A stretch of DNA of 63,941 nt, counting the filler. It is 6 parts of 6 records of this genome, joined end to end, with 100 filler letters (N's around TTAATTAATTAA, not from the genome) between each part and the next. Parts side by side here need not be neighbours in the genome. Positions count along the whole stretch, not along the records: positions 33,865 to 41,268 come from SRR31156797_2740; 5 more parts are not named here. One strand, 5' to 3'. A program made the position numbers and the translations under genes. Position 1 is the stretch's first letter. The number at the start of each line of letters is the position of its first letter. The notes below the pieces were generated by a model. It searched no databases. It was not told the DNA's origin and saw only the letters and a list, made by a program, of their open reading frames with translations. Below are positions 23,757 to 50,495 of this stretch, piece after piece.

Positions 23757-23766
23757 TCCCCCTTTT

Positions 23767-24114
23767 TTAGTAAACCGGATTTAATCCTAAATCACAAAGA
23801 GCTGAACAAGCTCTAAACATTGAATAACCACATTCAATTAAAGTAATTTCATTCTCACAAGCCAACTCCTTCATTTCTGGCGAAACCTTTTTATCTCTCA
23901 CAAACAAAATAAAAGAGATATCGGACATTTCTGAAGTTCGGATGGTTTGTAGGTTATTTAAACCTGTAATTAAAAGAAGATTTTCTGTATCTATAGTAAG
24001 TACATCACTCATTAAATCCGACGCAAATCCAAACTGAACTTCCTTATTCAAATCACTCTCTCCACAAATAACACGTGCATTAAGTTTATCAACTACATCT
24101 GCCACTTTCACCAT
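23767..24114 (-). CDS. DRTGG-domain protein
   Basis: FASDLMSDVL and LLITGL...IRT; paralog of 21627-21962. Confidence 0.8.
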   Translation of the reverse strand: MVKVADVVDKLNARVICGESDLNKEVQFGFASDLMSDVLTIDTENLLLITGLNNLQTIRTSEMSDISFILFVRDKKVSPEMKELACENEITLIECGYSMFRACSALCDLGLNPVY

Positions 24115-24426
24115 ATCGCAGTATTAAATTATGTTTATTTAAACGCTCTTTTACGTGGCACTAAGATAAGAAATTGAGGTAGATTAATAAATGATATATA
24201 AAGGAATAGAGACAATTTCCATAAATAAATATTTAGTCTAAATAACACCGATTTAACTATAGATTCTAAATAAAAATAATGTTTGGACATGTTATAAATA
24301 AGATGAGAAAATAATTCAAATTAATCGATCCATTCAAATGTTAAATCTTTTAATTTGAAATCGTATTTTTAACTATATTCGTTAAAAGTAAACCACAATA
24401 ATTAATAGCACTTTATTTCTTTATTA

Positions 24427-25242
24427 ATGAGCAAAAAAACTCAACATATACTCATTTTAGTTCAGGATTATAAACACATAACCGGTGCAATTAAATATGC
24501 ATTTAAGCTGGCACATATGTTTAAGGCTAAAGTTGCCTTTGCAAACATGCTAAACACTAAGAATAAACCTATTGATTTTAATTTAGATCAACTAGTAAAT
24601 CAATTCAACCCAAATTCTATTGAATACAAAGAAATCGACCTCGGAAGAATAGAAAAAGAACCTAACAATACTATTAAGCTATTAGATGTTGTTTTTATTG
24701 TAAGTGAATTTCCAGCAAAAAACCTATCTGGATTTTTTAGGAAAAATCCTGTTTTCAAACTGCTTTACAAAGCCAAAGTTCCCAGCTTTATAATAGGTGA
24801 ACATACTTCCTTAGATTGTGATTTGAAGAATATAATTGTCCCTGTCGATTATAAAAAAGAAACCAAAGAAAAGATGATATGGGCAAGTTATTTTGGGCGT
24901 TTCAATCAAGCTGTAATTCACTTAATAGTCCCGAAAGAGAAAAATGAAACTATTCTAAGAAAAATTAAAGCAACACTTCTTTTTACCAGAAAAATGTACG
25001 AACAGTTTAGCTTCGACTATAAGATAGTTAAAACATCTTCGAAAAGTGAGAGAATTAAAGAAGAGTCTTTTCTGTTTTCGGAGAAGTACCAATCTGATCT
25101 TATTCTATTGCTCTCGCATGGTAATAATGATTGGTATGGGAACAATTTTGGTCCTCGAGAGATAAAGAAATATCTACTTAATAAGAAAAATCCAATTTTA
25201 TTTATAAATCCATTAAAAGATTACTATCTACCATGCAGCTAG
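24427..25242 (+). CDS. universal-stress-protein-like protein (tandem USP)
   Basis: HILILV...AFKLA, KNIIVPVDY, DLILLL and NPILFINP patterns. Confidence 0.65.
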   Translation: MSKKTQHILILVQDYKHITGAIKYAFKLAHMFKAKVAFANMLNTKNKPIDFNLDQLVNQFNPNSIEYKEIDLGRIEKEPNNTIKLLDVVFIVSEFPAKNLSGFFRKNPVFKLLYKAKVPSFIIGEHTSLDCDLKNIIVPVDYKKETKEKMIWASYFGRFNQAVIHLIVPKEKNETILRKIKATLLFTRKMYEQFSFDYKIVKTSSKSERIKEESFLFSEKYQSDLILLLSHGNNDWYGNNFGPREIKKYLLNKKNPILFINPLKDYYLPCS

Positions 25243-25402
25243 TTGCATCACTATTGATGAGTACATAGAAATAATAGATGCATAATAGTGACCAATAAGT
25301 ATAAAAATTCGACTTGTATTGTTATCTTTAAAGGGCAGATCGAAGATTAGACAACAAACAACATCAACTATAATTTTCTTTTCAAATCTGTTTAATTATC
25401 AA

Positions 25403-25445
25403 TATAAAAAAAGGAATTACCACTAGGGTAATTCCTTTTTTTATA
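25403..25445. terminator. bidirectional intrinsic terminator
   Basis: AAAAAAAGGAATTACC-ACTAG-GGTAATTCCTTTTTTT between convergent genes. Confidence 0.9.
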
Positions 25446-25460
25446 TCATATTTTTAAAGT

Positions 25461-27647: not shown

Positions 27648-27681
27648 TTTATCTATATGTTGTTTAAGTAATTCTTTAATC

Positions 27682-28260
27682 TTAAAACTTACTAAGTTCC
27701 TGATATAAACGCTGAATTGGCAATCCTACCACGTTAAAGTACGATCCTTCAATTCCATCAATACCAATAAAACCAATCCACTCCTGGATGCCATATGCAC
27801 CAGCTTTATCAAAAGGTTTATAGTTATCGATATAGTAATTGATCTCCTCTTCGGATAATATCTTAAAATGCACATTAGTGGTTGTGGCAAAACTCACCTT
27901 TTTTTCTTTACTCATTAAGCAAACTCCACTAATCACCTGGTGCGATCTTCCTGATAAAGCTCGCAACATTTTTACGGCATCATTTCTATCTTTTGGCTTA
28001 CCCAAAATCCAATCGTCAATGCACACAATTGTATCAGCCGTTATCACCAATTCATTCGATACAACATCTTCCTTAAAAGCCTTGCCCTTTAATTCGGCAA
28101 GGTAAACTGGAATTTCCTCAGGAGTTAATCCGTCAGGATACACCTCCTCTACCTCTTTGGTTTTTATTTCGAATGATAATCCCAGCTCCTTTAGCATTTG
28201 ATGACGTCGCGGAGATTGAGAAGCCAATATTATTTGATAATCTTTTAGATTATTCAACAT
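27682..28260 (-). CDS. maf: Maf-family nucleoside triphosphate pyrophosphatase
   Basis: LASQSPRR, ADTIV, GKP, DKAGAYGIQ and NVVGLP motifs. Confidence 0.92.
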   Translation of the reverse strand: MLNNLKDYQIILASQSPRRHQMLKELGLSFEIKTKEVEEVYPDGLTPEEIPVYLAELKGKAFKEDVVSNELVITADTIVCIDDWILGKPKDRNDAVKMLRALSGRSHQVISGVCLMSKEKKVSFATTTNVHFKILSEEEINYYIDNYKPFDKAGAYGIQEWIGFIGIDGIEGSYFNVVGLPIQRLYQELSKF

Positions 28261-28262
28261 TT

Positions 28263-29222
28263 TTAAAAATTTGAATGATTGATAATATAATTCACTACAA
28301 AAGCATACGAAATGCCTGTAAGGATAGCGAAACGTAATAAAAACACACCTAATTTGAACTTATCTCCCACTTTATATTTTGCCACTTTATAAGCCAGAAT
28401 AACAATTGGTAATATAATTAGAATGGCAAAATACCAAGGTGTGATATTATCCATTGGTGCATTTAGAAACTGATACCAAACACCAAAAACTGATACTGAC
28501 AAAAATAAAAGCAAAGTCACAATTACAATCTTAGACCATTTTAATCCAATAACCACTGGAAGACTTCTTCTTTGTATTTCACTATCTCCTTTTATCGATA
28601 ATAAATCTCTTATAAATTGACCAATTAAAGCCGCCAAAAAAGTGAAAAATGAGAATGAGCCAACCCAGTACAATAGGTAATTAAAATCTGTTTTAGATGC
28701 CAAAAGAACATCGGCATATTTTTTATTTAATGGTGGTATCTCGTAAATCACAACTAAAAAAGGAATAGCTGCCGATATCATCGCCATAATAAAGCTTCCC
28801 AGTAAAAAATAATACTTGTAGGAAGTTGAATAAAACCACAACAAACCTCCCGCCATAAAGAAGATGAATACAAATTGCCAATGTCCAACTTTATAAGAAA
28901 CATAAGCTCCCAACAGAACCGATATTACCATAAATACCTGATGCATTAGCAAAGCAATTCTTCTTTTTACCAAACGACCAACAATAACATCTTTCTTGTT
29001 GAAACGATCCGCTTTCGTATCGAAATAATCATTAATAATATACCCAGCAGCAGCCATAAATAGTGTCGCCAGTACCAAAATAGCAAAATCGATATCAGCC
29101 AATTGAAGCTTAATTCTATTTATTCCCAAAATTGGTTCAATAATAAAGTAACGCATTACAATTTGTATTAATGCGATAATAATTAAGTTCGGAAATCGGA
29201 CTAACTTCAGGTATTTGCTCAT
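28263..29222 (-). CDS. UbiA-family prenyltransferase (DGGGP-synthase-like)
   Basis: LVRFPNL, AAGYIINDYFD..AD..N and multiple TM helices; start moved to ATG 29222. Confidence 0.85.
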   Translation of the reverse strand: MSKYLKLVRFPNLIIIALIQIVMRYFIIEPILGINRIKLQLADIDFAILVLATLFMAAAGYIINDYFDTKADRFNKKDVIVGRLVKRRIALLMHQVFMVISVLLGAYVSYKVGHWQFVFIFFMAGGLLWFYSTSYKYYFLLGSFIMAMISAAIPFLVVIYEIPPLNKKYADVLLASKTDFNYLLYWVGSFSFFTFLAALIGQFIRDLLSIKGDSEIQRRSLPVVIGLKWSKIVIVTLLLFLSVSVFGVWYQFLNAPMDNITPWYFAILIILPIVILAYKVAKYKVGDKFKLGVFLLRFAILTGISYAFVVNYIINHSNF

Positions 29223-29247
29223 TTCGATTGGAGTTAAATAGAGAGAT

Positions 29248-29775
29248 TTAAATGCTTTGAATATTTGTATCTGATTCGTACCATTTTGAGTGAGCACGTA
29301 ACACTTGTTCAATTACATCTCTTACACAACCATATCCACCGTCCTTATCTGATATGTAATTTGAAATTGCCTTAATTTGCTCAACAGCATTTGCCGGACA
29401 AGTAGGAACACCTATTCTTTTCATCACTTCAAAGTCAGGTAAATCGTCCCCCATATACATGATATGGTCCGGATTAAGGTCGTGCTTCGAAATGAAATCT
29501 TCAAAATCTTTAATTTTATTTTTTGAAGCCATATAAATATCTTTCACTCCCAATCCGCGATATCTTTTCTCAACAGCATTCGATACTCCTCCAGTAATAA
29601 TTGCAACAGGATATCCTTTTTTAATTGCATATTGAATTGCATAACCATCTTTAGTGTTTGCTGTTCGCAACATTTCTCCGTTAGAATCAATAACAATACA
29701 CTCGTTGGATAATACTCCATCTACATCAAAAATGAAAGCTGATACTTTCATTAAATCTTCTTTAAAAAACGCCAT
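29248..29775 (-). CDS. KdsC-like HAD phosphatase
   Basis: FDVDGVL, KDG, YMGDDLPD and GGYGCVRDVIEQVL motifs. Confidence 0.88.
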   Translation of the reverse strand: MAFFKEDLMKVSAFIFDVDGVLSNECIVIDSNGEMLRTANTKDGYAIQYAIKKGYPVAIITGGVSNAVEKRYRGLGVKDIYMASKNKIKDFEDFISKHDLNPDHIMYMGDDLPDFEVMKRIGVPTCPANAVEQIKAISNYISDKDGGYGCVRDVIEQVLRAHSKWYESDTNIQSI

Positions 29776-29799
29776 ACTGGTAATATCTATATGATTATA

Positions 29800-30582
29800 C
29801 TAATTATTTTTCTCTGAATGCATCTTAAAAATACTTTCACTCACAAAACTATACAATTTTTGAAAATCAGGTAAATCTTTTAGTTCATTCTCATGCTTTG
29901 TCATAATTTCTTTATCGAATCGAATAGCAGGACCTGTTTGTGCCAACATTGGATCAAGTTCTTGAACTTTCTCGGCTGTTTCTTTAATCAGAGGCTTTAA
30001 CAAATCAAAATCGACATCCTTCTCTGTCACTAGTTTTTGCCCGATGCTATACATGTGATTGGCAAAATTACAGGTGAAAACAGCAGCCAAATGCAGTTGT
30101 TTTCTTTGTTCTGACGATATTAAATTCAGATTTTTAGATATTTTCTCTCCTAATTGAAATAAATCTTGTTCCAATCCAATATTATTGGCTTCTATACAAA
30201 TAGGAATATCCGAGAAATCGACTTTTCGTTGTTTCGAGAAGGTTTGTAAAGGATAAAAAACACCAAAATGCTCAGTATAATTTTCGAAAATATCCATAGG
30301 AATACTGCCCGCAGTATGTATCGCATTACCAATTGGTAATGAAATTTGATCCAATACAGCGTGCAATGCCTTATCGCTTAAAGCAAAAATGTACAAATTC
30401 GCATTGGGCACAATATTCTTAAGCGAATTGGTATATCGCGAATTAACTTTATCAGCAAGTGTTTTAGCCGACTCTATAGTTCTACTATATACTTGTAAAA
30501 TCTCAATTCCATTTTCGTGGAGTGCGATAGAAAGTTGTGTAGCTAAATTGCCAGCACCTATCATTACAATATTTTGAATCAT
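29800..30582 (-). CDS. Rossmann-like + DUF2520 oxidoreductase
   Basis: IGAGNLA, HTAGS, FYPLQTF, HLAAVF.CNF and QTGPA.R motifs. Confidence 0.85.
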   Translation of the reverse strand: MIQNIVMIGAGNLATQLSIALHENGIEILQVYSRTIESAKTLADKVNSRYTNSLKNIVPNANLYIFALSDKALHAVLDQISLPIGNAIHTAGSIPMDIFENYTEHFGVFYPLQTFSKQRKVDFSDIPICIEANNIGLEQDLFQLGEKISKNLNLISSEQRKQLHLAAVFTCNFANHMYSIGQKLVTEKDVDFDLLKPLIKETAEKVQELDPMLAQTGPAIRFDKEIMTKHENELKDLPDFQKLYSFVSESIFKMHSEKNN

Positions 30583-30592
30583 ATGGCAGATA

Positions 30593-31093
30593 TTAAACAA
30601 TTCCTAATTCTTGTGGCGAGGCAGCAATATTTTTCAAGGGTACTTTGCCTCTGTCAATCATTCCAAAGAGTTTCTCACAGCCCTTCACTAAATCTTCATA
30701 CATGTCTTCGGCAACCAAAACCAATCTCGCGTCTACAAAGTCTAAATGTTCTGCCTCTTCGGGCTGATTATCTCTGGAACAAAGCAAAAGCGATTTACTG
30801 GGAACAAACGAATGTGTTAATTGATTTCTCAATCTATCGTACAGCCAAAAATCCTTATTTACTGCACGGTAATCATTACCCATTAATATATTTAATGATT
30901 TAGAAAATCGTTTCGATGATTGAGCACGAGCTTTTAAGGGTTTATTATCCAAAAAACAACCCAATGCCTCTATTGCCTGTCCCATCATTATGAATGAAAA
31001 GAAATAGAATCCTTCCTTTTGCAATCGTCCAATTTCATCAATGAATATTTTGCGGATAAATTCTTTCTCCTGTTCAGCTTTTTCTTTGTCCAT
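30593..31093 (-). CDS. hypothetical protein, possible HEPN-like fold
   Basis: Helical-looking 166-aa ORF in an operon; IEALG and LRNQLTH (Rx4H). Confidence 0.6.
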   Translation of the reverse strand: MDKEKAEQEKEFIRKIFIDEIGRLQKEGFYFFSFIMMGQAIEALGCFLDNKPLKARAQSSKRFSKSLNILMGNDYRAVNKDFWLYDRLRNQLTHSFVPSKSLLLCSRDNQPEEAEHLDFVDARLVLVAEDMYEDLVKGCEKLFGMIDRGKVPLKNIAASPQELGIV

Positions 31094-31207
31094 ATGGCAA
31101 ATATATACAGATATTATCGAATTGCATTTGAATTATCAGGGAATCGAATTGCAATTTTAAATTGTAAGAAAAAATAGTTTATCTAGCTAACACATTAGAC
31201 AATCAAC

Positions 31208-31235
31208 AAAAAATGCTGCCCATAAGAGCAGCATT
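31208..31235 (-). terminator. intrinsic terminator after porin
   Basis: AATGCTGC...GCAGCATT inverted repeat followed by a U-tract on the minus strand. Confidence 0.7.
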
Positions 31236-31260
31236 ATATATTTTAATCAATTTCGCTAAT

Positions 31261-32457
31261 TTAGAATGAAAACTGCAATCGAGTTTGAATCATGTTAAAG
31301 TTCTCATCACCATTTAATGAATACTCATCCAAATCAACATTGGTAAAGTTGAATTTCATTAAAATGTTGTGATTCACAAACCATGTGCAACCAAGAGTTA
31401 TATCTTTTTGTTTTCCACCCATTATATTTGAATCAGTATGATTCAAGTCTGTTACGTTGTATCTGGCAAGAAATTCAACCGAACCGGGACCTGGTTTAAC
31501 CAAACGTGCTGATTTCATTTTATACTTATAGTCTCCACCTTTAAGCAACCATCCTAGCTGTGCATACCATCCTTGCGAATCATAATCCTCATAACCTGAT
31601 TTTCTTGAAACCGATGCTTCAATATATTCCCCTTGAAATGATATCGGTCCATTCGCAGCAATCATCTCTAAGCCTATTTTCACTTGACTTTCAGCATGAT
31701 TAACTTTAGCATCAATAAACCTTCTTCTTTCAATATGAGTTGCAGGTCTAGAGCGATATCTAATAAATTTAGGATTTGGGTCATCATGTTCGTCAAAACC
31801 AGCGGCATCTGCAGTTCGGTATGTTCCGGAAACTCCAATATGAAATATTCCATCGTCGCTATTTAGAGGAGCAAAAGCTAATCTTGAAGTTAAACCATAT
31901 CCTTCATCTCCTTCTGTCTTGTTATTGGTATCGCTACCAAATAAACCTATTTCCCAAAAATGCTTCTTACCCCAATTGGCATAGGAAACTCCCAAGTTAC
32001 GTCCAGGACGAAATGCTTCAACAGTGCTCGATGCATGCATAAACTTGGTTGTTTTCGAACTTTCGGTTTGTTCAATTCCAAAAGGCTCAAGAAAATGTCC
32101 TGCTCGAACGAAACTGTTCTTATTTATCTTATGCATCAACCAAACATCTTTAAGAGAAACTGTTCCATCTGCAAAACCAATATTAATTTTAGCATCCCAC
32201 TTTTTCCATAGAGTAGCTTTCATTAATAGGCGAATGTCACGAATTTCACTTCCGCTACTTAAATCCGTTTCGTCATCGAAATAGGCTGCAGCATCCATAT
32301 AAACACGTCCCCCCATTCCAAATTTGAATTGTCCATCATCAGTTGCAACTTGAAGAGAACCTTTGTTGACGCTTAGTTTTAAATTATTAGAATCTTGCGC
32401 AAATAGACTTCCTGCCAAAAGACATAAGCAGCAGGCAATAAAATAGTGTTTTTTCAT
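31261..32457 (-). CDS. OprO/OprP-family phosphate-selective porin
   Basis: Signal peptide; GGRVYMDAA, EPFGIEQ..SS, QGEY and GWYAQ; C-terminal Phe (RLQFSF). Confidence 0.82.
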   Translation of the reverse strand: MKKHYFIACCLCLLAGSLFAQDSNNLKLSVNKGSLQVATDDGQFKFGMGGRVYMDAAAYFDDETDLSSGSEIRDIRLLMKATLWKKWDAKINIGFADGTVSLKDVWLMHKINKNSFVRAGHFLEPFGIEQTESSKTTKFMHASSTVEAFRPGRNLGVSYANWGKKHFWEIGLFGSDTNNKTEGDEGYGLTSRLAFAPLNSDDGIFHIGVSGTYRTADAAGFDEHDDPNPKFIRYRSRPATHIERRRFIDAKVNHAESQVKIGLEMIAANGPISFQGEYIEASVSRKSGYEDYDSQGWYAQLGWLLKGGDYKYKMKSARLVKPGPGSVEFLARYNVTDLNHTDSNIMGGKQKDITLGCTWFVNHNILMKFNFTNVDLDEYSLNGDENFNMIQTRLQFSF

Positions 32458-32740
32458 TTTAAATCGATTTATAATTAGGCGTTTAGTATTTTGCATGCTA
32501 AATGTAACGAATTGAATTGTTAGATTAAGAATAAATAATCCTTCCTACAGTAGTTAGTAATCAAAATGCAATTCAATCGACACATTATCTTAATAACTGC
32601 GGGCAAAACTAATGGCTTTACAGGAATATTTACAAATAAACATTTTAAGGAAAGGTTAATTCGACTTAACGAAGATTTAACATTGAAATTGGAAATAGTT
32701 CAAACCAAATAAAGATCAAGCAAATGCTACAGATTAAAAC

Positions 32741-32772
32741 AAAAAAAGAGGTTCCCAATATGGAAACCTCTT
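32741..32772 (-). terminator. intrinsic terminator after acyl-CoA dehydrogenase
   Basis: AAAAAAAGAGGTT-CCCAATATGGA-AACCTCTT. Confidence 0.75.
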
Positions 32773-32794
32773 AAGATTAAGCCCAAAAGCTTAA

Positions 32795-33764
32795 TTATTT
32801 TTTAAAAATACCAAGATCTTTCAATTCAGAAGACATGATGTATTCAAGGTAAGAAGCAACTTTAGCTTTACCCATTTTTACGAATACTTCACAAGAAGCT
32901 TTGTATTTATCATCTCTAGTTGTATCAGTCAACAACAAGTATCCCATAATAATGTAACCAGCCATCTCAACTAAACGACGAGCATGGAAATCAAGGAAAT
33001 CGTTGTGATCAGCAGTAGCATTGATTTCATTCACCTTAGCTACAGCTTCTTCGTACTTCACAGTCATACCTTTTAAAGTAGTTCTGATATACTCTAATTG
33101 AGGATTTAATTCAGAAGCTTCATACTCCTTAATTTGAGCTAAATATGCACCTGTAGTTACTCCACGAACAGCAGCTACAACCTGCAATTGAGTAGTTCCT
33201 TCGTAAATGTTGGTAATACGAGCATCACGTACTAAACGCTCAATTGGGTAATCTTTCATATAACCCGAACCCGCGTGAATTTGTAATGAATCGTATGCAA
33301 CCTCGTTACAGAATTCAGAAGCAAATAACTTCAATAATGGTGTAAATACATCTGCAATTTTCTGATATTTCTTCATATCCATTCTCTCTTCTTTATCTAA
33401 AGAACGATCTTGAGAAATATGGTAGTATGCTTTGTAAACATCTACAAAACGAGCTGTTTCATATAATACAGAACGAGAAGCATTTAATTTAGCTTCCATA
33501 TTTGTAAGCATTTCGTAAACCGCTGGGAATTCGATAATTGCCTTGCCAAACTGACGACGTTCCTTAGCATAAGCTAAACCTTCGCGGTAAGCAGCCTCTG
33601 CTATACCTACTGATTGAGCACCTACACCTAAACGTGCACCGTTCATTAATGACATTACGTATTTGATCAATCCCATTTTACGAGATCCAACCAATTCAGC
33701 AGGAGCATTGGTAAATACCAACTCACAAGTTGGAGAACCAATGATACCCATTTTGTGCTCGATA
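32795..33764 (-). CDS. acyl-CoA dehydrogenase, 5' truncated
   Basis: EHKMGIIGSPTCEL, RLGVGAQ, RRQFGK and ARITNIYEGT motifs. Confidence 0.92.
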
Positions 33765-33864
33765 NNNNNNNNNNNNNNNNNNNNNNNNNNNNNNNNNNNN
33801 NNNNNNNNTTAATTAATTAANNNNNNNNNNNNNNNNNNNNNNNNNNNNNNNNNNNNNNNNNNNN
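33765..33864. other. artificial contig spacer
   Basis: N-run + TTAATTAATTAA + N-run. Confidence 0.99.
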
Positions 33865-33894
33865 TAAAAAATACATAAGGGAGGAGGTTGGTTT

Positions 33895-35538
33895 TTATTT
33901 CTCAGTATATCTAAAATACTCAAAGTCAGCATGTAATCTTCTACCAGTTAAATCCTGACACGCCATTCCGACAAAAGCTCCTGTGAAGCCCATTGGAGTA
34001 GCGTACTCGTCAGAAAGAATAGTCACATCTAACTCTATTTCAATCTGTTCGAAACTTCTCCCATCAAGAGAATAACTAAAGAAAAGCTTCTCGTCATCAA
34101 CATTAGCTCTCAGGTAAATTTTGCTAATATTATCTTCAATTAAGATTTCCTCTGTTTTCATTGGCATATCAAATACGCCATCATCCATTGTGATTATTCC
34201 GATACTTCTTTTACCAGAATCCTCATCATAACTTACTCTCAAATAATACTGATTTTCTTCATTATATTTAATTAATAATCCGGCCATTTGCTGGATATCT
34301 TCTGGATTGAACTCCAAGCAAGTTTCAGTTTCATATTTAAAACTTTGCTGCCTTCTGGCAATTACAGATTGATTAAATTTTGATGTAATAGATTCCTGTC
34401 CGTAGATTCTCAGATAATCTTTTCTCTCTTCCAAACTTGTAAAATTTTCTTTAGGAATTCTAAGTGATTGAAAATAAAGTGGAAGTTTATCATAATCAAA
34501 ATTATCAATAAACTCTTTTTGACTCAGTTTTACTTCAACACCTTTTAATTCCATGTGAAGATCAGGTTCGTTTGTGCCGTTTACATGATATATCCAGTCA
34601 TTATCTTTCCATTCAAATTTCTGAATAGCAGTTTCTCTACCTAATACACACATTCCACGAATTCCTCTGCCATCAATCTCCTTACCTAAAGATTTTAATT
34701 TCTCCATAGCTCTACCTTTGTTTAGAGGTCTTCCGCAGAGATGAACCATATACCAGTAGCCATCAGTTCCTTCGCACATACTTGCATGGCCTGCTTTTTG
34801 TAGTGGGAGATCAGGATTATTCCAAGAAGTAAGTACAGGATTTTGTGGATGAACTTCGTATGGACCCTCTATATCTTTTGATCTTGCCAGAGTTACGCTG
34901 TGTCTGTATGAAGTACCACCTTCAGCTGTTAAGAGATAATAATAACCGTTTCTTTTATAAATGTGCGGGCCTTCAGTAAATGAGATTTCTGTTCCAGTAA
35001 AGATTTTTTTGATAGGGCCAATTAATTTTTTCTGCTCATGGTCATACTCTTGTAATAATATTCCGTCAAATGGATTAACACCCAGTACATCTTTATAGTT
35101 CCATTTCATGTTTACAAACCATTTCCTACCATCATCGTCATGAAAAAGTGAAGGATCAAAACCACTGCTATTCATATAGATGGGTTCACTCCAATCACCT
35201 TTAACATCAGTAGTCGTAACCAGATAGTTATGTGAGTCTTTATGTACACTTTTCCAATCTTTGACGTCAGTGTAGATTAGGTAAAATACACCATCACAAT
35301 AACTTAGGCACGGAGCCCATATTCCGCTGGAGCTGGGATTTCCTCTCATATCCAGTTGGGAAACTCTGTTAAGAGGAGTTGCTATGAGTTCCCAGTTTGC
35401 TAAATCTTTGGAATGATATATCTGAACACCGGGGAACCATTCAAATGTTGATACAGCTATATAATAATCTTCTTCAACTCTTACGATTGAAGGATCGGGA
35501 TTAAATCCCGGTAATATTGGATTTTGTACTAATGCCAT
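33895..35538 (-). CDS. GH43 beta-xylosidase/arabinofuranosidase (XynB-like)
   Basis: NPILPGFNPDPS, WAP, FDPSLF, EGPH, AEGGT and GFTGAFVG; no signal peptide. Confidence 0.93.
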   Translation of the reverse strand: MALVQNPILPGFNPDPSIVRVEEDYYIAVSTFEWFPGVQIYHSKDLANWELIATPLNRVSQLDMRGNPSSSGIWAPCLSYCDGVFYLIYTDVKDWKSVHKDSHNYLVTTTDVKGDWSEPIYMNSSGFDPSLFHDDDGRKWFVNMKWNYKDVLGVNPFDGILLQEYDHEQKKLIGPIKKIFTGTEISFTEGPHIYKRNGYYYLLTAEGGTSYRHSVTLARSKDIEGPYEVHPQNPVLTSWNNPDLPLQKAGHASMCEGTDGYWYMVHLCGRPLNKGRAMEKLKSLGKEIDGRGIRGMCVLGRETAIQKFEWKDNDWIYHVNGTNEPDLHMELKGVEVKLSQKEFIDNFDYDKLPLYFQSLRIPKENFTSLEERKDYLRIYGQESITSKFNQSVIARRQQSFKYETETCLEFNPEDIQQMAGLLIKYNEENQYYLRVSYDEDSGKRSIGIITMDDGVFDMPMKTEEILIEDNISKIYLRANVDDEKLFFSYSLDGRSFEQIEIELDVTILSDEYATPMGFTGAFVGMACQDLTGRRLHADFEYFRYTEK

Positions 35539-35566
35539 TCTATAGACCTCCTATTATTTGAAATAT

Positions 35567-35631
35567 GATAATTAAACTCACTTTCAAAAGTTATTTTAAT
35601 ATGTTATATAACATATCGAAGAAGAAGTCAA
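35567..35631 (-). promoter_or_regulatory. sigma70 promoter of GH43 with downstream ROK/XylR-like operator
   Basis: TTGACT-17-TATAAC (35631-35603); operator GATAATTAAA-N5-TTTCAAAAGT at 35567-35591. Confidence 0.65.
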
Positions 35632-35804
35632 GAAGTTTTTAAACGCGTGTTTATTAGAGCTTGAAAATTAAACAAATTATTCTGAGGCATTTTTAACAAT
35701 AGAGAATATGTTTTGGAGAGTTATTTTAACTACAAAGAGAAGAGAAGTTTGAAAAGAAAAATTAAACAAGAGAAAATTAAATAATAAATAATTAAAAAGA
35801 TTTT

Positions 35805-35840
35805 AAATAAAAACTCTAGTGTTAACTAGGGTTTTTATTT
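35805..35840. terminator. intrinsic terminator hairpin
   Basis: AAATAAAAACTCTAG-TGTTAA-CTAGGGTTTTTATTT. Confidence 0.75.
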
Positions 35841-35849
35841 ACTTTTTAT

Positions 35850-35981
35850 CTATTTTTTATCAACTACATAACCATTATGAATAATTATCCAGTCTTGGAT
35901 TCTTATACTATCAAACATTTGATAACATTCATTTAGAGTTTTAAATTTACCTATTTTAACTCCTTCAATAAATAATTCCAT
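35850..35981 (-). CDS. 43-aa small protein, below the ORF-track cutoff
   Basis: AAGGAGG RBS 9 nt before ATG; MELFIEGVKIGKFKTLNECYQMFDSIRIQDWIIIHNGYVVDKK; terminator immediately after. Confidence 0.6.
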   Translation of the reverse strand: MELFIEGVKIGKFKTLNECYQMFDSIRIQDWIIIHNGYVVDKK

Positions 35982-36100
35982 TAAAATTAACCTCCTTTTT
36001 AGATTTATGAGTTTACTGCTGAAGTTTTATTTCAACTTGATTATTATACACTATACATGTATTAATAGTATATTTTTAGTGTGAATGTTCTGTAAAGCAT

Positions 36101-36556
36101 TTACTTATCTTCTTTCAAATAGATACTTATTTTGTTTTTGTAAATTCCGTTTTCAATTCTATGCCAATTCCCATTAATTTTTGAAATGTCATACTCAACC
36201 TTTAAACCTAATTTTTTATTGCAAAAATAACCTCTTTTTAATTTTTTTTCTTTATGTAATTCAAAAAGTTTTTTATTTTTCTTCTTAAGATCAACTATGT
36301 AAAAACTAACAGCAGTTGTTAATTCGCTAGAGAGTTGATTATTCTCATCAAAAAATCCCTTTGAATCAAGTTTTAGTGTTATATCATTTTTATATTTGCT
36401 TTTAAGTATTAAAGGGTATAGAAATTCCTGACTTTTATTCGGATTGATTTGAATTTGTATTTCCATAAGTGATGATTTGTTTTTAATACTCAAATTTTTT
36501 GCAAGCATAGTATGACAGTTAATAAATAGGGCCAAAAAAAGTAAAAGACTTTTCAT
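36101..36556 (-). CDS. secreted hypothetical protein (fourth gene of surface-protein operon)
   Basis: Signal peptide MKSLLLFLALFINCHTMLA; AGGTG RBS; C-terminal GIYKNKISIYL strand. Confidence 0.7.
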   Translation of the reverse strand: MKSLLLFLALFINCHTMLAKNLSIKNKSSLMEIQIQINPNKSQEFLYPLILKSKYKNDITLKLDSKGFFDENNQLSSELTTAVSFYIVDLKKKNKKLFELHKEKKLKRGYFCNKKLGLKVEYDISKINGNWHRIENGIYKNKISIYLKEDK

Positions 36557-36564
36557 GTGATCAC

Positions 36565-38064
36565 CTAACTTTCAATAATTAGATCTTTTTTTATTAATAA
36601 TAATTCCTCTTCGTTATTTATTATTTTTATTTCAGCTTTGTATTTTCCTTTTCCTAGTTTATTGGTAGTTCCAATCAACATTCCGTTTTGATCAGGTAAT
36701 GTCATTTTAATATTCTCCGGAAGATTAAGCTCAACTCTTTCAATGAATTTACCAGTTTTATCTGTTATCACAATTTCGGCATATGGTGTGATGAAAATAT
36801 TACTTTTATTATAAAAATTACAGGATATGGTTTGATTATTTTCAATTATTTTTCCATAGATGCTGTTAAAATTAATTTTATAATCAAAATTTTCTCCTAC
36901 TATAGCAGTTATAGGAATTTCTTTTTGGAATAATATTTTTTTATTTTTATTAAATGCAACTAAATTCATAATTCCGTGATAACTTCCATTTATGGTTTTT
37001 CTCGGAATGGTTAAAGTAAATAAAAATTTTTGTTTACCCCTTTTTCTTATTAAATGGCTGTTTTTACCTCTTAGTTGAATCCATGAATTTAAACTGTTCT
37101 TATTTCCAGATTTGATATTTTTTAATGTAATACCGACAAAATATTCCTGATTAAGCTCATTGTTTAACTCTATCATTTGTGTTTTTCTAAGTCCTGCTCT
37201 TAGATTAAAATCAAATTTATCATTAGATGTAGAAAAATATTCAGCTTCACTTAATGATGGGAAAATGAAATCTCCTTTTTTTACTACAATTTCCTGGTTT
37301 ATAATTTTTTGCTTATTACCATATCTTATGAACGTTCTAAGGGTGTATTTTCCTGGATCTATTCTCTTAGTGATTGGTGAAGAGAAATCTAGTGTGCTAT
37401 TTGGATAAATTTTTTGTGATGTTAACTGATTAGTTCGCTGATTGCTTGTTTTCAAATATAAGCGTTCGACTAATTTTCTATTAGAATCTCTAAGTGTTGC
37501 TTCTATACTGGTATCGAAATCCCATTTAGATGAATTTTGCAGGGTAGTTTTAATTACAGGCTTTTTGTTTTCATTAGCAACTATATCAATTTCATTAAAG
37601 TTTAATTCTTTTCTTAATCCAACTCTACTTACCCTTATATTTACTCTAACTGCATATCTTACCATAAATTTGATACCACCTGCTTTATTCCCATCATCAT
37701 CATTTTCAATCATAATAATAATAGTTTCTGAACCTCCGGCATTAAATGGTACATTAATTTGACATTTTATCTCATTGTTTTTTCCGGCATATACAGTTGT
37801 TTTTTCTGTTTCAAGTTTTAGCCAATTTTGAACAGGAAATTTTTGTTTATTTCCAAGATCATAATTAATCGCTCCATCTCTCGTTTGAATAGGTTGATAA
37901 AATGAGAGTTTTATTTTTTCCTCATTTTTACTTGGACTTAGTGTAAGTATAAACTCCTTAATATCCCCCGGTTGTGCGTCAATATCTATACTTAATGGTT
38001 TAACACCAACTGAAAAACTTATAATAGAAATAGATACGAAAATTAGAATTAGTATTTTTTTCAT
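36565..38064 (-). CDS. secreted multi-Ig-fold, chaperone-like (PapD/DUF916-like) protein
   Basis: Signal peptide MKKILILIF; GVKPLSIDI...NWLKL...YAVRVNIRV; PGKY and KGKY Ig-like strands; two similar halves. Confidence 0.6.
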   Translation of the reverse strand: MKKILILIFVSISIISFSVGVKPLSIDIDAQPGDIKEFILTLSPSKNEEKIKLSFYQPIQTRDGAINYDLGNKQKFPVQNWLKLETEKTTVYAGKNNEIKCQINVPFNAGGSETIIIMIENDDDGNKAGGIKFMVRYAVRVNIRVSRVGLRKELNFNEIDIVANENKKPVIKTTLQNSSKWDFDTSIEATLRDSNRKLVERLYLKTSNQRTNQLTSQKIYPNSTLDFSSPITKRIDPGKYTLRTFIRYGNKQKIINQEIVVKKGDFIFPSLSEAEYFSTSNDKFDFNLRAGLRKTQMIELNNELNQEYFVGITLKNIKSGNKNSLNSWIQLRGKNSHLIRKRGKQKFLFTLTIPRKTINGSYHGIMNLVAFNKNKKILFQKEIPITAIVGENFDYKINFNSIYGKIIENNQTISCNFYNKSNIFITPYAEIVITDKTGKFIERVELNLPENIKMTLPDQNGMLIGTTNKLGKGKYKAEIKIINNEEELLLIKKDLIIES

Positions 38065-38089
38065 CTCTTTCATCCCCTTTGCCAATAAA

Positions 38090-38112
38090 GGGGCAGAAAA
38101 ATATTCTGCCCC
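38090..38112 (-). terminator. intra-operon stem-loop / partial terminator
   Basis: GGGGCAGAA-TATTT-TTCTGCCCC-TTTATT on the minus strand, between subunit genes and chaperone-like gene. Confidence 0.75.
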
Positions 38113-38136
38113 GATTTTTTTATTTAGTATTTGCTT

Positions 38137-38748
38137 CTATAATGCTACTACAGTAAGAGTTATTGTACTTGTATATTCGCCTGTTTCAACTAACCAAAAT
38201 TCTTCAGGCATTTGTATTGCTGTTATTAAAGAATAAGTATGCATTCCATTAGGGTCTATTATATTTGGGAAAATAGCTCCTGGAATACCTGATGGTTGAT
38301 TTTGATATAAAAGAGGAACACTTATATTAATTGTATCAGAATAAAGAGCAATCATATATGCTCCTTGATTATGAAATGGAATTCCATTTTTAGAAAAAGG
38401 AGTAACTTCAGCGGAAATAATACATCTAGCATTAGCTGCAAAAGTTATTTCTTTCATATTAAATCTTGTTTCTCCCCCTATACCAGAAAAAGCTTGAACA
38501 GGATTTTCTCTTCCTTCACCTGATAGTGAATCTCCAATAAATAAGAAGTCGCTAAACTCTTGATTTGTCATAGAGTACCATAAATCGTTATCAGGTTTAT
38601 CAGATAACAAAGATACTTCTGCATATTTATCAACAGAAACGGACACATTTACATTATCATTAAGATGTCCTGTTAACGCAAAGATAACTGAGTTATTTAA
38701 AAGGAAAAATAAACTTACCATTATGCAAAAAACTATTCTTTTTATCAT
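38137..38748 (-). CDS. secreted pilin-like subunit 2
   Basis: GGAGGG RBS; signal peptide; NVNVSVSVDKYAEVSL N-terminal strand; GEYTSTITLTV C-terminal strand; paralog of 38786-39247. Confidence 0.65.
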   Translation of the reverse strand: MIKRIVFCIMVSLFFLLNNSVIFALTGHLNDNVNVSVSVDKYAEVSLLSDKPDNDLWYSMTNQEFSDFLFIGDSLSGEGRENPVQAFSGIGGETRFNMKEITFAANARCIISAEVTPFSKNGIPFHNQGAYMIALYSDTINISVPLLYQNQPSGIPGAIFPNIIDPNGMHTYSLITAIQMPEEFWLVETGEYTSTITLTVVAL

Positions 38749-38785
38749 AATCATCCCTCCATTCTTTTGCGAGACATGATTATCC

Positions 38786-39247
38786 TTATGCTGGTTCATC
38801 ATAATTAGAAATAGTTACTGTTATACTTCCATTATGAATACCGTGTTCTAATCCATACCAAGGCACTTCAGGATTGAATTCAGCAGTTAAATTAATTAGA
38901 TCGTTGATTACTCCACCATTGTAAGGGTAATCTTTTGTAGCTCCTCCATTAACTGTTGCTCCAAGAATCAATTGGTCAATTTCTGTAAAGCCTACTTCTG
39001 AAAGAGTCATTGTGATTCCACAGTTAGCTTCAATCGAAAAACCAAGGGATTCGTTTAACGAAGCTTCTGGGTTATCTAAGCTTCCAACAAAAACAAATTC
39101 ATTTGCAATGGTTAATTCAGCATATGGTTCAACTGTAACACTAACATTAATATCTTTGTCCTCTCCTAAAAGAGTAGGAACAACTTCACCAAACCCCAAA
39201 CTACTAATCAATAACATTGCTAAAACTAATCCGATAAATCTTTTCAT
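38786..39247 (-). CDS. secreted pilin-like subunit 1
   Basis: AGGAGG RBS; signal peptide; EDKDINVSVTVEPYAELTI N-terminal strand; GIHNGSITVTIS C-terminal strand. Confidence 0.65.
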   Translation of the reverse strand: MKRFIGLVLAMLLISSLGFGEVVPTLLGEDKDINVSVTVEPYAELTIANEFVFVGSLDNPEASLNESLGFSIEANCGITMTLSEVGFTEIDQLILGATVNGGATKDYPYNGGVINDLINLTAEFNPEVPWYGLEHGIHNGSITVTISNYDEPA

Positions 39248-39276
39248 TATTCTCTACCTCCTACTAGATTCTTATC

Positions 39277-39363
39277 TAGTTGACGGTCGGTTTCGCCGTT
39301 GACTAACTGTACTCTCATTGGCGACCAGTTTATAAGGGTACAGCTCGATGTCTCCGAGAACTA
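39277..39363 (-). ncRNA. c-di-GMP-II riboswitch
   Basis: Minus strand CGGA-GAC-AUCGAG-CUGUACCCUUAU-AAAC-UGG-UCGCC-AAUGAGAGUACAG-UUA-GUC-AAC-GGCGA-AA-CCG-A-CCG: P1, P2 GAC/GUC, P3 and pseudoknot UCGCC/GGCGA + UGG/CCG with AA bulge; 30 nt before the start codon. Confidence 0.85.
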
Positions 39364-39446
39364 TTTTATCGGATATTTAAGGCCTCTCTTAGCCGGCCGG
39401 CTTGCTACATACACACACGTACTGGTCTCTTATATCCCCAAATTAA

Positions 39447-39475
39447 TTATACTGAGTTTTTAAGCAAAAATCAAC
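39447..39475 (-). promoter_or_regulatory. sigma70 promoter of the riboswitch-controlled operon
   Basis: TTGATT-17 nt-TATAAT; predicted start near 39440. Confidence 0.7.
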
Positions 39476-39919
39476 CTAAATGAAACCGCAAAAATAGACA
39501 CATTAGATAAACTGAAGATGTTTTTTATGGGTGGTGATTAGTGTGCATGAAAATCGTTTTCTCTAAAAACTAAATGTATTGAATCCAAACAGTTATTTGG
39601 CGTTTTCTTGGTAAAAATACTATTATTATAAAAAAATAACAAAAAATGTAACTGGAAATAATGATGTTTATAGGAGAGTGGATGTAAAAAGGAGAAGGAC
39701 GTTGAGATGTTTAGAAAAAAAGGTTGTTTAGCTAATTAAAATAACGACTGGTAAAAGTAGTAAGTTTTTAGTAATGTGTAATTAAAAATACTTAATTATT
39801 GACAATTGATCTTTTTAGAAAAAAGTTAAAATTTCTTAAAATATTAGTAAAAAAATCTAATTATTAATGAGTAAATAAGAGATAAAATTTAGTATTAGAC
39901 TATTTTTTTAATAAAAGTA

Positions 39920-39983
39920 TTGACAATTAACTTTTTATATTATACACTCATATCAAGAAGTTATTAAAGTCAGTTGAAAAACT
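39920..39983 (+). promoter_or_regulatory. sigma70 promoter of ROK gene with autoregulatory operator
   Basis: TTGACA-17-TACACT (39920-39948); operator AGTTATTAAA-N5-TTGAAAAACT at 39959-39983. Confidence 0.65.
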
Positions 39984-40079
39984 TGTAAAAATAAATTACT
40001 ATTATAGAGCTTTATTATTTTTTTAATAAAAGTCAAAATGATTCAATTTTGACTCGAAAAAACAATTGGGGATAATGCC

Positions 40080-41231
40080 ATGAAGAAGAGTTATCAAGAA
40101 AAAGAAAAAGATAAAAATCTTAAAAAAATCATGAGTTTGCTTAAGAAAAAAAGAAAAATTACAAAAGCTGAATTATCGAAGAAACTTAACTTAAGTATTC
40201 CAACAGTTACTAAATTTATAAAAGAGTTATTAGATATGGGAGTAGTATTTGAAGCAGAACTATCTGAATCAAGTGGTGGTAGAAGACCTGCAACTTTTGA
40301 ATTTGTACCTGACTCACTATTATCAGTAGCAGTTAAATTAGAACTGAACTATTTGCAGCTTGCTCTTATCAACCTTGATGGAAAGATAATTAAAAGAAAA
40401 ATTATAAATAAAAACTTCATTAATAATCAAGATGTAATAAATATTTTAACGCAAGAAATAGAACTATTTTTATTTGAGATAGGTGTTCTTAAAGAAAAGA
40501 TAAAAGGAATAGGAATCTCTATACCCGGAATAATCTCAGATGATGAATTAATATTAGAGGTAGGGACAAACTTCAAACTTTATAATATTAATTTTGAAGA
40601 ACTACAGGAACAACTTGGATTCCCGGTAAGAATTGAGAATGAAGCAAATGCAGCAGCATTAGCAGAGTTTGAAAAACAAAAAATCAAAAAAGATAAAAGT
40701 ATATTATTAATTTCTATTAATACAGGAATAGGTGCCGGAATAATAATAGATGGTAAACCATATAAGGGTTATCAAAAACGTGCCGGAGAAGCAGGACATA
40801 TTACTCTGTATCCAAACGGTAAGCAGTGTAACTGCGGAAATGAAGGTTGTTGGGAGCTTTACTGTTCTAATACAGCATTAATTAATGAATTCAGTCAAAA
40901 TTTTGAGGGAATAGAAACTTTGAGAGATGTATTCAGTAAAAAGAATATAGCTGATGAAAAGGGACAAGAGATAATACATAGTTTTGCTAAAAATATGGCA
41001 ATTGGTATAAGAGATTTACTTCTGATATTTGACTGTAATAAAGTAATAATCAGTGGAGAGATTTGTAATTACTCTAAATATATAAAAGATGAAATAGAAA
41101 ACAATATATTTAAAAAAGACATTTTTTATAAAAATCAAAATAAGAAGCTTGAATTCTCTGAATATAAAGCAGATGCCAATCTGATTGGTGCAGGACTTCT
41201 TACTTTTAAAGATTTATTTATAATGGAATAA
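40080..41231 (+). CDS. ROK-family transcriptional repressor (XylR-like)
   Basis: N-terminal wHTH (ITKAELS...LSIPTV, SSGGRRP); ENEANAAA, GIGAG, AGEAGH and CNCGNEGCWE motifs. Confidence 0.93.
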   Translation: MKKSYQEKEKDKNLKKIMSLLKKKRKITKAELSKKLNLSIPTVTKFIKELLDMGVVFEAELSESSGGRRPATFEFVPDSLLSVAVKLELNYLQLALINLDGKIIKRKIINKNFINNQDVINILTQEIELFLFEIGVLKEKIKGIGISIPGIISDDELILEVGTNFKLYNINFEELQEQLGFPVRIENEANAAALAEFEKQKIKKDKSILLISINTGIGAGIIIDGKPYKGYQKRAGEAGHITLYPNGKQCNCGNEGCWELYCSNTALINEFSQNFEGIETLRDVFSKKNIADEKGQEIIHSFAKNMAIGIRDLLLIFDCNKVIISGEICNYSKYIKDEIENNIFKKDIFYKNQNKKLEFSEYKADANLIGAGLLTFKDLFIME

Positions 41232-41268
41232 ATTTTAGTATATATAAATTTTAGTTTCTTTTTGATAC

Positions 41269-41368
41269 NNNNNNNNNNNNNNNNNNNNNNNNNNNNNNNN
41301 NNNNNNNNNNNNTTAATTAATTAANNNNNNNNNNNNNNNNNNNNNNNNNNNNNNNNNNNNNNNNNNNN
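41269..41368. other. artificial contig spacer
   Basis: N-run + TTAATTAATTAA + N-run. Confidence 0.99.
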
Positions 41369-50395: not shown

Positions 50396-50495
50396 NNNNN
50401 NNNNNNNNNNNNNNNNNNNNNNNNNNNNNNNNNNNNNNNTTAATTAATTAANNNNNNNNNNNNNNNNNNNNNNNNNNNNNNNNNNNNNNNNNNNN
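50396..50495. other. artificial contig spacer
   Basis: N-run + TTAATTAATTAA + N-run. Confidence 0.99.

Follow-up and report, generated by a model that had tools for sequence, protein, structure and literature searches.

A c-di-GMP-class riboswitch operon for candidate donor-strand pilins and their chaperone, with relatives that adjoin a secretin

Results

Operon layout and leader

The stretch of DNA analysed here (the window, 63.9 kb of joined contigs whose GC content runs from 27% to 58% across the pieces) contains, on one 7.4-kb contig of ~30% GC (33865-41268), an operon of four genes, g1 to g4, that we interpret as encoding the subunits and the chaperone of a surface fibre. Statements about flanks cover these 7.4 kb alone. 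On the minus strand, a promoter-like site, a riboswitch aptamer and an AGGAGG ribosome-binding site are followed by the four co-oriented genes (36101-39247; Table 1). Translation of the open reading frames (ORFs) revealed that each product starts with a basic residue and then a hydrophobic stretch (i.e., a Sec-type signal peptide). An earlier interpretation made from the letters alone, hereafter the sequence-only reading, had described four co-oriented signal-peptide genes behind a riboswitch, and the minus-strand ORFs and an Rfam match confirm this arrangement. Its "one promoter" held up in part: the site is present and matches 10/12 positions, although this AT-rich region holds about as many sites of the kind as its shuffled versions do (28 found versus 27.4 expected).

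Table 1 Features of the operon contig, in order of transcription.
Feature	Coordinates	Strand	Basis and remarks
Promoter-like site (-35 TTGATT, 17-nt spacer, -10 TATAAT)	39446-39474	-	Position only; ~80 nt upstream of aptamer
c-di-GMP-II-GAG riboswitch aptamer	39276-39364	-	RF03169, full model 1-86
g1, pilin-like subunit, 153 aa, signal peptide	38786-39247	-	ORF, alignment, AlphaFold2 model
g2, g1 paralogue, 205 aa from MIMIKR	38137-38754	-	Family hidden Markov model (HMM), E 7.7e-29; ORF extends to 38802
Terminator-like GC-rich hairpin between g2 and g3	38090-38112	-	9 pairs, 6 of them G-C, then TTTATT
g3, chaperone candidate	36565-38064	-	Sub-cut-off Pfam matches, AlphaFold2 model, complex prediction
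g4, pilin-like paralogue, 151 aa	36101-36556	-	hhalign to g1/g2 family

The aptamer scored 45.9 bits with the cyclic di-GMP (c-di-GMP)-II-GAG family (E 8.5e-6), above the gathering score of 40, and is the sole Rfam match at gathering level in the whole window. It fits the GAG variant and not the canonical model (RF01786), both of which belong to the c-di-GMP-II clan (CL00127); the c-di-GMP-II riboswitch named by the sequence-only reading is thus right as to clan, the matching model being the variant. The 3' end of the aptamer lies 28 nucleotides (nt) before the g1 ATG. In the predicted leader fold, a short hairpin adjoins the ribosome-binding site and has bases in common with the 3' P1 strand, and no U-tract is present, so control is probably translational or structural. 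Analogy to the c-di-GMP-II switches known for pili and adhesins makes an ON switch more probable than an OFF switch, and family assignment makes c-di-GMP the presumed ligand.

The g3 ORF extends to a TTG at 38085, and the ATG at 38064 has the better AAAGGA spacing. We favour this ATG as the start because the hairpin between g2 and g3 overlaps the TTG that opens the longer ORF. The hairpin is possibly an attenuator that holds pilin transcripts above chaperone transcripts and thereby sets the pilin-to-chaperone stoichiometry.

The operon is flanked by a GH43 beta-xylosidase gene and a divergent ROK regulator gene, so the unrelated neighbours that had been claimed are there, as far as the contig reaches. 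Also in line with the sequence-only reading, Pfam revealed no usher, sortase or PapD match in the four operon proteins, and an LPxTG-plus-anchor motif is absent from all of g1-g4. An NCBIfam scan of the same four proteins returned nothing meaningful. No close relative of the operon contig was recovered in scans of a genome collection and of metagenomes.

Pilin-like proteins g1, g2 and g4

g1 and g2 align as paralogues; g2 is interrupted by mid-chain insertions and keeps the two terminal strands of g1, in which the alternating N-terminal strand (DINVSVTV) is followed by a YAEL motif and the C-terminal strand is GIHNGSITVTIS. Neither Pfam nor NCBIfam has a family for g1, g2 or g4, and a word-index homology search with g1 gave 153 candidates, 0 of them at E ≤ 0.01. 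We built a family alignment of g1- and g2-type proteins from syntenic loci reached through g3, and its profile matched 62 of 1.84 billion cluster representatives at E ≤ 1e-3 (10 at ≤ 1e-10), most of them 150-220 amino acids (aa) long and aligned end to end. Only a few members are named, all as 'hypothetical protein', and one of these comes from a Limnochordia metagenome-assembled genome (MAG). A Pfam scan took 56 of the 62, leaving out one fragment and five long multidomain matches. None of the 56 reached a Pfam cut-off in the pilin part, and sub-threshold matches were to SCPU (two members) and DUF4402 (one member).

A 61-row alignment (52 of the 62 profile matches plus 9 locus sequences, with 10 long or partial rows dropped) revealed an N-terminal strand that alternates between hydrophobic and polar residues in 61/61 sequences and is followed by x-x-Y-A-x-[IL]. 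Mature g1 positions 13, 15, 17 and 19 are hydrophobic in 95-100% of the sequences, versus 3-7% for positions 12, 14, 16 and 18. The sole invariant column is the Asn of an 'AN' motif, and the conserved C-terminal motif is W-x-x-[LV]-x-A-G-x-Y-x-G-x-[VI]-T-[VIL]-T-[VI]. The alignments uphold the paralogy of the first two genes and their shared N-terminal strand, AN motif and C-terminal strand, all of which the sequence-only reading had reported. It had also seen a similar terminal strand in gene 4, and we found that g4 is indeed related to g1/g2 (hhalign 98.1%, E 9.2e-14, over 143 columns that fall partly in the signal peptide) and ends in the strand W..IE.G.Y...I. In the g4 alignment a 10-column gap falls at the donor-strand position, and the V-x-V-x-V..YA N-terminal strand is apparently absent. 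Because of this apparent absence g4 is a candidate distal (tip or initiator) subunit, and g1, as the first gene after the leader, is a candidate major subunit.

The AlphaFold2 model of mature g1 (predicted local distance difference test score, pLDDT, 88.3) has an immunoglobulin (Ig)-like fold. Its top Foldseek matches in the PDB were the PapG pilin domain (6.4e-5) and CfaB (1.2e-4), along with FimG, CsuE, CS17, a TasA fibre, PapA and CsuA/B. An exhaustive VIA search ranked the pilin domains of FimH (Z 8.0) and PapG (7.9) among the highest structures, together with CS17 (7.7) and CfaB (7.6), and when re-alignment is included, the leading or near-leading places go to these two pilin domains, PapA and CfaB (about Z 8.0-8.3). 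The pilin-like subunits that had been proposed from sequence are thus supported by the best structural matches, which are donor-strand pilins at middling Z. Matches to chaperone-bound or truncated pilins start at about g1 residue 20, and residues 1-19 therefore remain as an extension. Furthermore, the family profile weakly matched the PDB sequences of Caf1 (E 0.002) and CsuE (E 0.006).

The WxL domain (PF13731) gave no match at E ≤ 1 in g1, g2 or g4 and matched 0/56 family members at E ≤ 0.01. No WxL chain (e.g., from 9i25) is among the g1 structural matches listed; a relation to the WxL domain may exist nonetheless.

The large protein g3 as a probable chaperone

g3 matches PF06030 (DUF916, residues 34-114) at 23.0 bits against a cut-off of 27.3 and PF11797 (DUF3324, residues 138-270) at 27.3 bits against a cut-off of 28.9, in the canonical PF06030-PF11797 order. 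Its orthologue in the related locus L001 scores 31.0 bits with PF06030 (above 27.3) and 26.1 with PF11797 (below its cut-off). g3 is a remote homologue of DUF916/DUF3324 (WxLIP/ElrE-type) proteins that lies below the reach of a threshold-based screen. No PapD-like match (PF00345/PF02753) was found in g3 at E ≤ 1, and the g3 profile hit PDB sequences only through one spurious match (E 0.016). A 5.8-billion-protein word index yielded 4 homologues, one of which is a 'COG1470 family protein' from Selenihalanaerobacter shriftii.

The AlphaFold2 model of g3 residues 27-285 (pLDDT 90.7) matched, first in Foldseek, the Enterococcus faecium WxLIP 9i1y_A (2.8e-15, template modelling (TM) score 0.55) and then 9i25_C, a WxLIP bound to a long WxL protein (4.4e-14). 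Chaperone-usher chaperones came next (CfaA 1.7e-11, CsuC 8.8e-10, FimC 2.3e-8, PapD and FaeE), and TM scores to the two groups together were 0.45-0.57. No transmembrane segment beyond the signal peptide, taken as 19 residues averaging at least 1.6 in Kyte-Doolittle hydropathy outside the N-terminal 60 residues, was present in any of the 25 g3 homologues, the window g3 among them, and all 25 carry, beyond the modelled part, ~220 further C-terminal residues without a family match.

Across 24 homologues the most conserved stretch of g3 is KFMVRYAVRVNIRV (ORF residues 139-152). According to a preprint of 17 October 2026 (bioRxiv 10.64898/2026.10.17.759780), which we cite here and below from the part of its text that was accessible, the DUF916/DUF3324 chaperone ElrE complements the WxL pilin ElrD with its strand 139-153, and the conserved stretch of g3 sits at the position of this donor strand.

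The complex of g3 residues 27-285 with mature g1 was predicted in three runs, folded without the alignments of this study. The interaction prediction score from aligned errors (ipSAE) was 0.69 in the three runs versus 0.02 for the best control; this mark is reached by 51/78 solved complexes and by 2/108 mismatched pairs. The runs share at least 87% of their contacts, and partner pLDDT is at least 82. g3 ORF residues 135-147 lie parallel to the last strand of g1 (residues 117-128), with indices rising together (contact pairs 113:121, 114:122, 115:123, 117:125 and 119:127), and antiparallel to its first strand (residues 25-27). g1 residues 1-19 lie outside the predicted interface. The predicted geometry is that of donor-strand complementation, as for ElrE-ElrD and chaperone-usher pairs. 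The large chaperone of the sequence-only reading is thus supported by both the g3 model, which matches WxLIP and then chaperone-usher chaperones, and the complex score.

Related loci and their secretin

In the order to which the first relative belongs, 7/19 genomes had full-length g3 homologues. An even sampling of that relative's phylum gave matches to g3 at E ≤ 1e-5 in 40/401 genomes, 19 of them with full-length copies. A scan of a genome collection with the g3 alignment found 1 locus, and a metagenome scan 1 short locus (L061, 1.7 kb, no useful context). About 20 further genomes of the phylum (e.g., loci L034-L042) encode proteins of 560-700 aa whose similarity to g3 is confined to its first ~170-260 residues (E 1e-7 to 1e-16), and sequence similarity places these in another, uncharacterised branch of DUF916-like proteins.

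We annotated 24 loci from 23 genomes with HMMs built for this study. Pilin-family genes adjoin the chaperone gene in 24/24 loci, and a gene for a ~400-aa secretin is adjacent in 20/24; the four loci that lack it come from contigs that are short or truncated (2.9-10 kb). The genes are arranged in two orders. In order A, the secretin gene is followed by one for a ~420-aa protein of unknown family, the pilin genes, the chaperone gene and then a g4-type gene; in order B, a pilin gene and the chaperone gene precede the secretin gene and one for a 520-570-aa protein with an STN/FecR_C-like N-terminus. The nearest structures to the ~420-aa partner are small outer-membrane beta-barrels (KdgM, DUF481; TM 0.38-0.44), a lead drawn from a poor Atlas model (pLDDT 0.57). 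Pfam's Secretin model confirmed the secretin assignment (4.4e-37 in L001), with the match at the locus position in 5/5 carrier genomes.

In these five carrier genomes, every other secretin lies within ~15 kb of a match to the ATPase family T2SSE, whereas the locus secretin has no T2SSE match on its own contig or within 130 kb. Genome G221 has the locus secretin only and no T2SSE match above the cut-off. No pseudopilin or type II secretion system (T2SS) ATPase genes were found near the locus secretin. The same five genomes contain no usher (PF00577, 0/5; Escherichia coli control positive), no sortase (PF04203, 0/5; controls positive) and no WxL protein (PF13731, 0/5; Lactococcus control positive).

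Several other genes recur at these loci. Order-A loci L010 (11892-12782), L043 (7251-8228) and L056 (3555-4496) encode proteins of ~300-325 aa that precede the riboswitch-controlled pilin, share only the C-terminal pilin strand motif and have no counterpart in the window; they may be two-domain tip adhesins. A regulator of ~400 aa with Trans_reg_C and BTAD domains recurs at L043 (5808-7010), L050 (5999-7222), L056 (4817-6025) and L052 (6535-7806), Pfam having been applied to the L043 and L052 copies only; part of the L043 copy weakly resembles GGDEF, at 23.2 bits where the cut-off is 23.8. Exopolysaccharide (EPS) chain-length genes (Wzz/GNVR) also accompany some related loci, as do the BTAD regulators. 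At L044, the chaperone gene is followed closely downstream by a group II intron D1-D4 match (9001-9173, minus strand; 44.9 bits).

Riboswitches at related loci

An Rfam scan of 22 related chaperone loci (all but L057 and L030) found c-di-GMP-class aptamers within 9/22. In the window and at 6/22 loci (L010, L043, L045, L046 twice, L050 and L059), a pilin gene is preceded, at a distance of at most 35 nt, by a c-di-GMP-II-class aptamer. All six have canonical RF01786 aptamers at this position, and L010 has II and II-GAG aptamers in tandem. In 3/22 loci (L043, L056 and L059), c-di-GMP-I or I-GGC aptamers, often in tandem, lie at most 12 nt upstream of a second pilin-like gene. The tandem c-di-GMP-I and c-di-GMP-I-GGC aptamers of these three loci (L043 10652-10935, L056 943-1215, L059 5788-6062) precede a more divergent pilin-like gene (~156 aa) downstream of the chaperone gene. 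The control by c-di-GMP that had been proposed for the window is consistent with this recurrence of c-di-GMP-class aptamers directly upstream of orthologous pilin genes. Aptamers of the c-di-GMP-I, I-GGC, II and II-GAG classes, found repeatedly before single pilin genes, are natural test cases for variant ligand specificity, and canonical and variant aptamers side by side (L043, L056, L059) could serve as a natural test of the variant ligand.

Host envelope and phylogeny

LpxC is encoded in 12/15 carrier genomes versus 26/121 genomes of a phylum sample that includes some carriers (rough Fisher p ~1e-5, computed from an assumed split of genomes that are not independent). In a maximum-likelihood tree of 25 chaperones, the window g3 sits on a long branch inside a clade (98/100) whose named member is from the Halobacteroidaceae and whose loci have order A, with secretin and partner genes upstream, wherever the contig allows. 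The neighbouring GH43 protein is 72% identical to a protein from a Fusobacteriaceae MAG; the next identities are 57-60% and come from mixed phyla.

Discussion

The operon probably encodes the subunits and the soluble periplasmic chaperone of a surface fibre that is assembled by donor-strand exchange and gated by a c-di-GMP-class riboswitch; we put the probability of this reading at roughly 65%. In-silico support covers the fold of the pilin-like subunits, the homology of the chaperone and the predicted strand complementation. In the sequence of events that we envisage, a cyclic dinucleotide, by family assignment c-di-GMP, would be sensed by the leader aptamer, which would thereby govern g1-g4; Sec would export all four products. 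g3 would then capture a pilin by fitting the conserved strand KFMVRYAV into the gap that separates the first strand of the pilin from its last, in parallel with the latter, as in the predicted complex. The free amphipathic N-terminal strand of an incoming pilin would take the place of the chaperone strand, so that g1 and g2 would polymerise non-covalently, with g4, which apparently has no donor strand, at the distal end. In the relatives, mostly diderms bearing lipopolysaccharide (LPS), conserved adjacency suggests that the fibre would exit by way of a secretin that is dedicated to it and independent of an ATPase, together with a second outer-membrane-like protein. In the window organism the secretin and its partner would be encoded elsewhere or be absent.

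Chaperone-assisted donor-strand exchange has long been thought to need an usher. Because the relatives in outer-membrane-bearing bacteria nearly always adjoin their own secretin, the loci point to fibre building by chaperone plus secretin, which is apparently undescribed; no published pilus of this kind was found in the limited collection of literature searched. This could amount to a third, 'chaperone-secretin' route by which donor-strand-exchange pili cross the outer membrane in LPS-bearing Bacillota and their relatives, in which a soluble DUF916/DUF3324-type chaperone would hand chaperone-usher-like pilins to a small ATPase-independent secretin and an outer-membrane partner under the switch of a c-di-GMP riboswitch. 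We hold this wider proposal tentatively, at somewhat less than even odds. If it is true, there is a new way to move a growing fibre across the outer membrane, secretins gain a new class of substrate, and the evolutionary relation of WxL and chaperone-usher assembly becomes testable. As for the non-canonical route put forward by the sequence-only reading, the survey of relatives that it called for supports it, with usher and sortase in 0/5 carrier genomes each and a secretin in 20/24 relatives; that secretin is not on the window contig.

Among known systems, the Elr/WxL pilus of Enterococcus faecalis is close. The accessible text of the preprint (bioRxiv 10.64898/2026.10.17.759780) describes ElrD as polymerising through N-terminal donor-strand exchange and DUF916/DUF3324 chaperones as building WxL pili in Gram-positives. 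Both systems have a DUF916+DUF3324-type chaperone (here a remote sequence match, with 9i1y and 9i25 as best structural matches), a donor strand that starts the DUF3324 or DUF3324-like domain and is oriented parallel to the pilin's C-terminal strand (predicted, in our case), several paralogous small secreted pilins per operon with an amphipathic N-terminal strand of ~15-20 residues, and no usher. The sequence-only reading had named a match to the DUF916 family as a finding that would speak against it; such a match was found for g3, remote as it is, and it supports the chaperone reading because the family is now described as a donor-strand chaperone (bioRxiv 10.64898/2026.10.17.759780), although this lowers the novelty. 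What is new is a pilin family without a Pfam model, and what was already known is the role of DUF916/DUF3324 chaperones in Gram-positive WxL pili. The differences are several. The pilins of the operon are non-WxL and resemble chaperone-usher pilins, and g3 has no transmembrane anchor and carries the ~220 extra C-terminal residues, whereas the same accessible text reports a C-terminal transmembrane helix on 96.7% of WxL chaperones. An LPxTG subunit and a sortase are lacking here; an LPxTG terminator and sortase are variably present there. [quoted passage not shown]

With chaperone-usher pili (the archaic Csu and the alternative CFA/I class 5 types) the operon shares the pilin fold, the C-terminal G-x-Y...T-V-T-V strand, a two-domain Ig chaperone like CfaA and CsuC, the predicted insertion between the A and F strands of the pilin, and the lack of an ATPase. 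Unlike these systems it has neither a PapD_N domain (PF00345) in g3 nor an usher, and in the relatives a secretin gene stands in place of the usher gene. The system would work like a chaperone-usher or an Elr pilus yet belongs to neither class, and we file it as a variant of chaperone-assisted donor-strand pili because it lacks usher, PapD domain, WxL domain, transmembrane anchor and sortase. Secreted beta-sandwich subunits and strand donation without an usher are also features of TasA/TapA fibres, archaeal bundling pili and cannulae, and Foldseek matches of g1 include a TasA fibre (8aur, E 7.3e-4), bundling pili (7ueg) and cannulae (9h8b), at lower TM scores of 0.37-0.41. The window operon differs from the TasA type in having a dedicated two-domain chaperone and no camelysin/TasA Pfam match; no SipW-type signal peptidase stood out in the ORF lists, in which no dedicated search was made. 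Type II secretion and type IV pilus secretins differ from the locus secretin, which has no T2SSE-family ATPase nearby.

In clostridia, c-di-GMP-II riboswitches control pili and adhesins. The arrangement here is similar, with the aptamer directly upstream of a pilin or adhesin gene and tandem aptamers in L010, L043, L056 and L059; it differs in that the targets in the window are donor-strand-type pilins rather than type IV pilins or LPxTG adhesins and in that the aptamer is a GAG variant. A published example, as given in the accessible part of the article, is a tandem c-di-GMP-II element upstream of a surface-anchor gene (PMC9481103).

Readings of the operon as a TasA/camelysin, sortase, type IV or Bacteroidia type V pilus were rejected on the basis that the operon proteins have no corresponding Pfam matches, that their signal peptides are of the Sec type and not of the prepilin or lipoprotein type, and that sortase is absent from the carrier genomes tested.

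Three other explanations have to be weighed against a polymerised fibre. g3 could bind the pilin-like proteins stably by strand donation and present adhesins or matrix proteins in a static surface or periplasmic complex. The structure prediction shows only a 1:1 chaperone-subunit interface, the C-terminal extension of g3 is absent from chaperone-usher chaperones, and a 2023 article (PMC10599100, in its accessible part) read DUF916/DUF3324 proteins as such a 'WxLIP platform'. For homologous chaperones, however, donor-strand-exchange polymerisation has superseded the platform model, as far as the accessible text of the preprint goes (bioRxiv 10.64898/2026.10.17.759780). Furthermore, the pilin N-terminal strand lies outside the interface and yet is conserved like the core strands, with its alternation kept throughout the family, which is hard to explain without a partner in trans, and several paralogous subunits, one of them seemingly strandless, form the pattern of a heteropolymeric pilus. 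A static complex is thus unlikely in our judgement. We give a still smaller share of belief to folded exoproteins (e.g., of a biofilm matrix) that are secreted singly through the secretin, with g3 as a matrix scaffold or secretion pilot and no strand exchange. Secretins normally export folded proteins, EPS chain-length genes and BTAD regulators occur in some related loci, and RbmA, a biofilm scaffold of Vibrio cholerae, is among the structural matches of the g3 model (E 1.7e-8). This match and similar ones have a low TM score (0.27, versus 0.45-0.57 for WxLIP and chaperone-usher chaperones), the locus secretin has no T2SS ATPase or pseudopilin genes near it, and the predicted interface has canonical donor-strand-complementation geometry.

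The least probable of the explanations considered is that the window organism is a monoderm with a secretin-less, Elr-like pilus whose fibre is held in the wall non-covalently. A promoter-like site and a leader do belong to the operon itself, the window contains neither a secretin nor an outer-membrane partner, and the known DUF916/DUF3324 systems are monoderm, at least in the accessible part of the preprint (bioRxiv 10.64898/2026.10.17.759780). Against this, the C-terminal transmembrane helix that is nearly universal on WxL chaperones in that text is found in 0/25 homologues, there is no LPxTG subunit, the window g3 falls inside the clade whose loci have secretin and partner genes upstream, the best match of the GH43 neighbour is from a diderm family, and the contig spans just 7.4 kb.

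Several observations weigh against the donor-strand-exchange fibre and temper our estimate. The complex score may reflect the model's memory of solved chaperone-pilin complexes, even though alignments were not supplied. The VIA scores of g1 (Z ~8) are middling, with Ig-like and PapD-like domains (ciliary central-pair proteins, MSP and the Vpr fibril) within 1 Z unit, and the window g3 is below both Pfam cut-offs. The absence of a donor strand from g4 depends on an N-terminal alignment that is uncertain, and the polymerisation of the pilins is argued by analogy. Searched with the HMMs of this study, the 63.9-kb window has neither a secretin nor an outer-membrane partner anywhere. LpxC was not matched in 3/15 carriers, which are genomes lacking completeness values, and the sole hint to the envelope of the window host is the GH43 match to the Fusobacteriaceae MAG. 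Finally, the literature searched, including the main text of Weinberg 2017, contained no statement on the ligand of the GAG variant.

Other features of the window

The window consists of six pieces separated by five junctions (19206-19305, 33765-33864, 41269-41368, 50396-50495 and 58663-58762), each of which has two 44-N blocks around 12 bases. With GC contents this far apart, the pieces perhaps derive from several organisms. The adjacent low-GC piece (19306-33764) encodes a Peptidase_S46 protein (E 2e-234), a phosphate-selective porin O/P, Maf, UbiA and a protein resembling Fe-only hydrogenases, a diderm-type set. An assignment of the host from this piece (Peptidase_S46, Porin_O_P) was rejected, as nothing ties it to the operon contig. 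On the high-GC piece that follows the operon contig (41908-43547, plus strand), an ORF resembling helix-turn-helix proteins (112 aa) is followed by a 434-aa ORF that, judged by eye, resembles a HipA-type kinase toxin.

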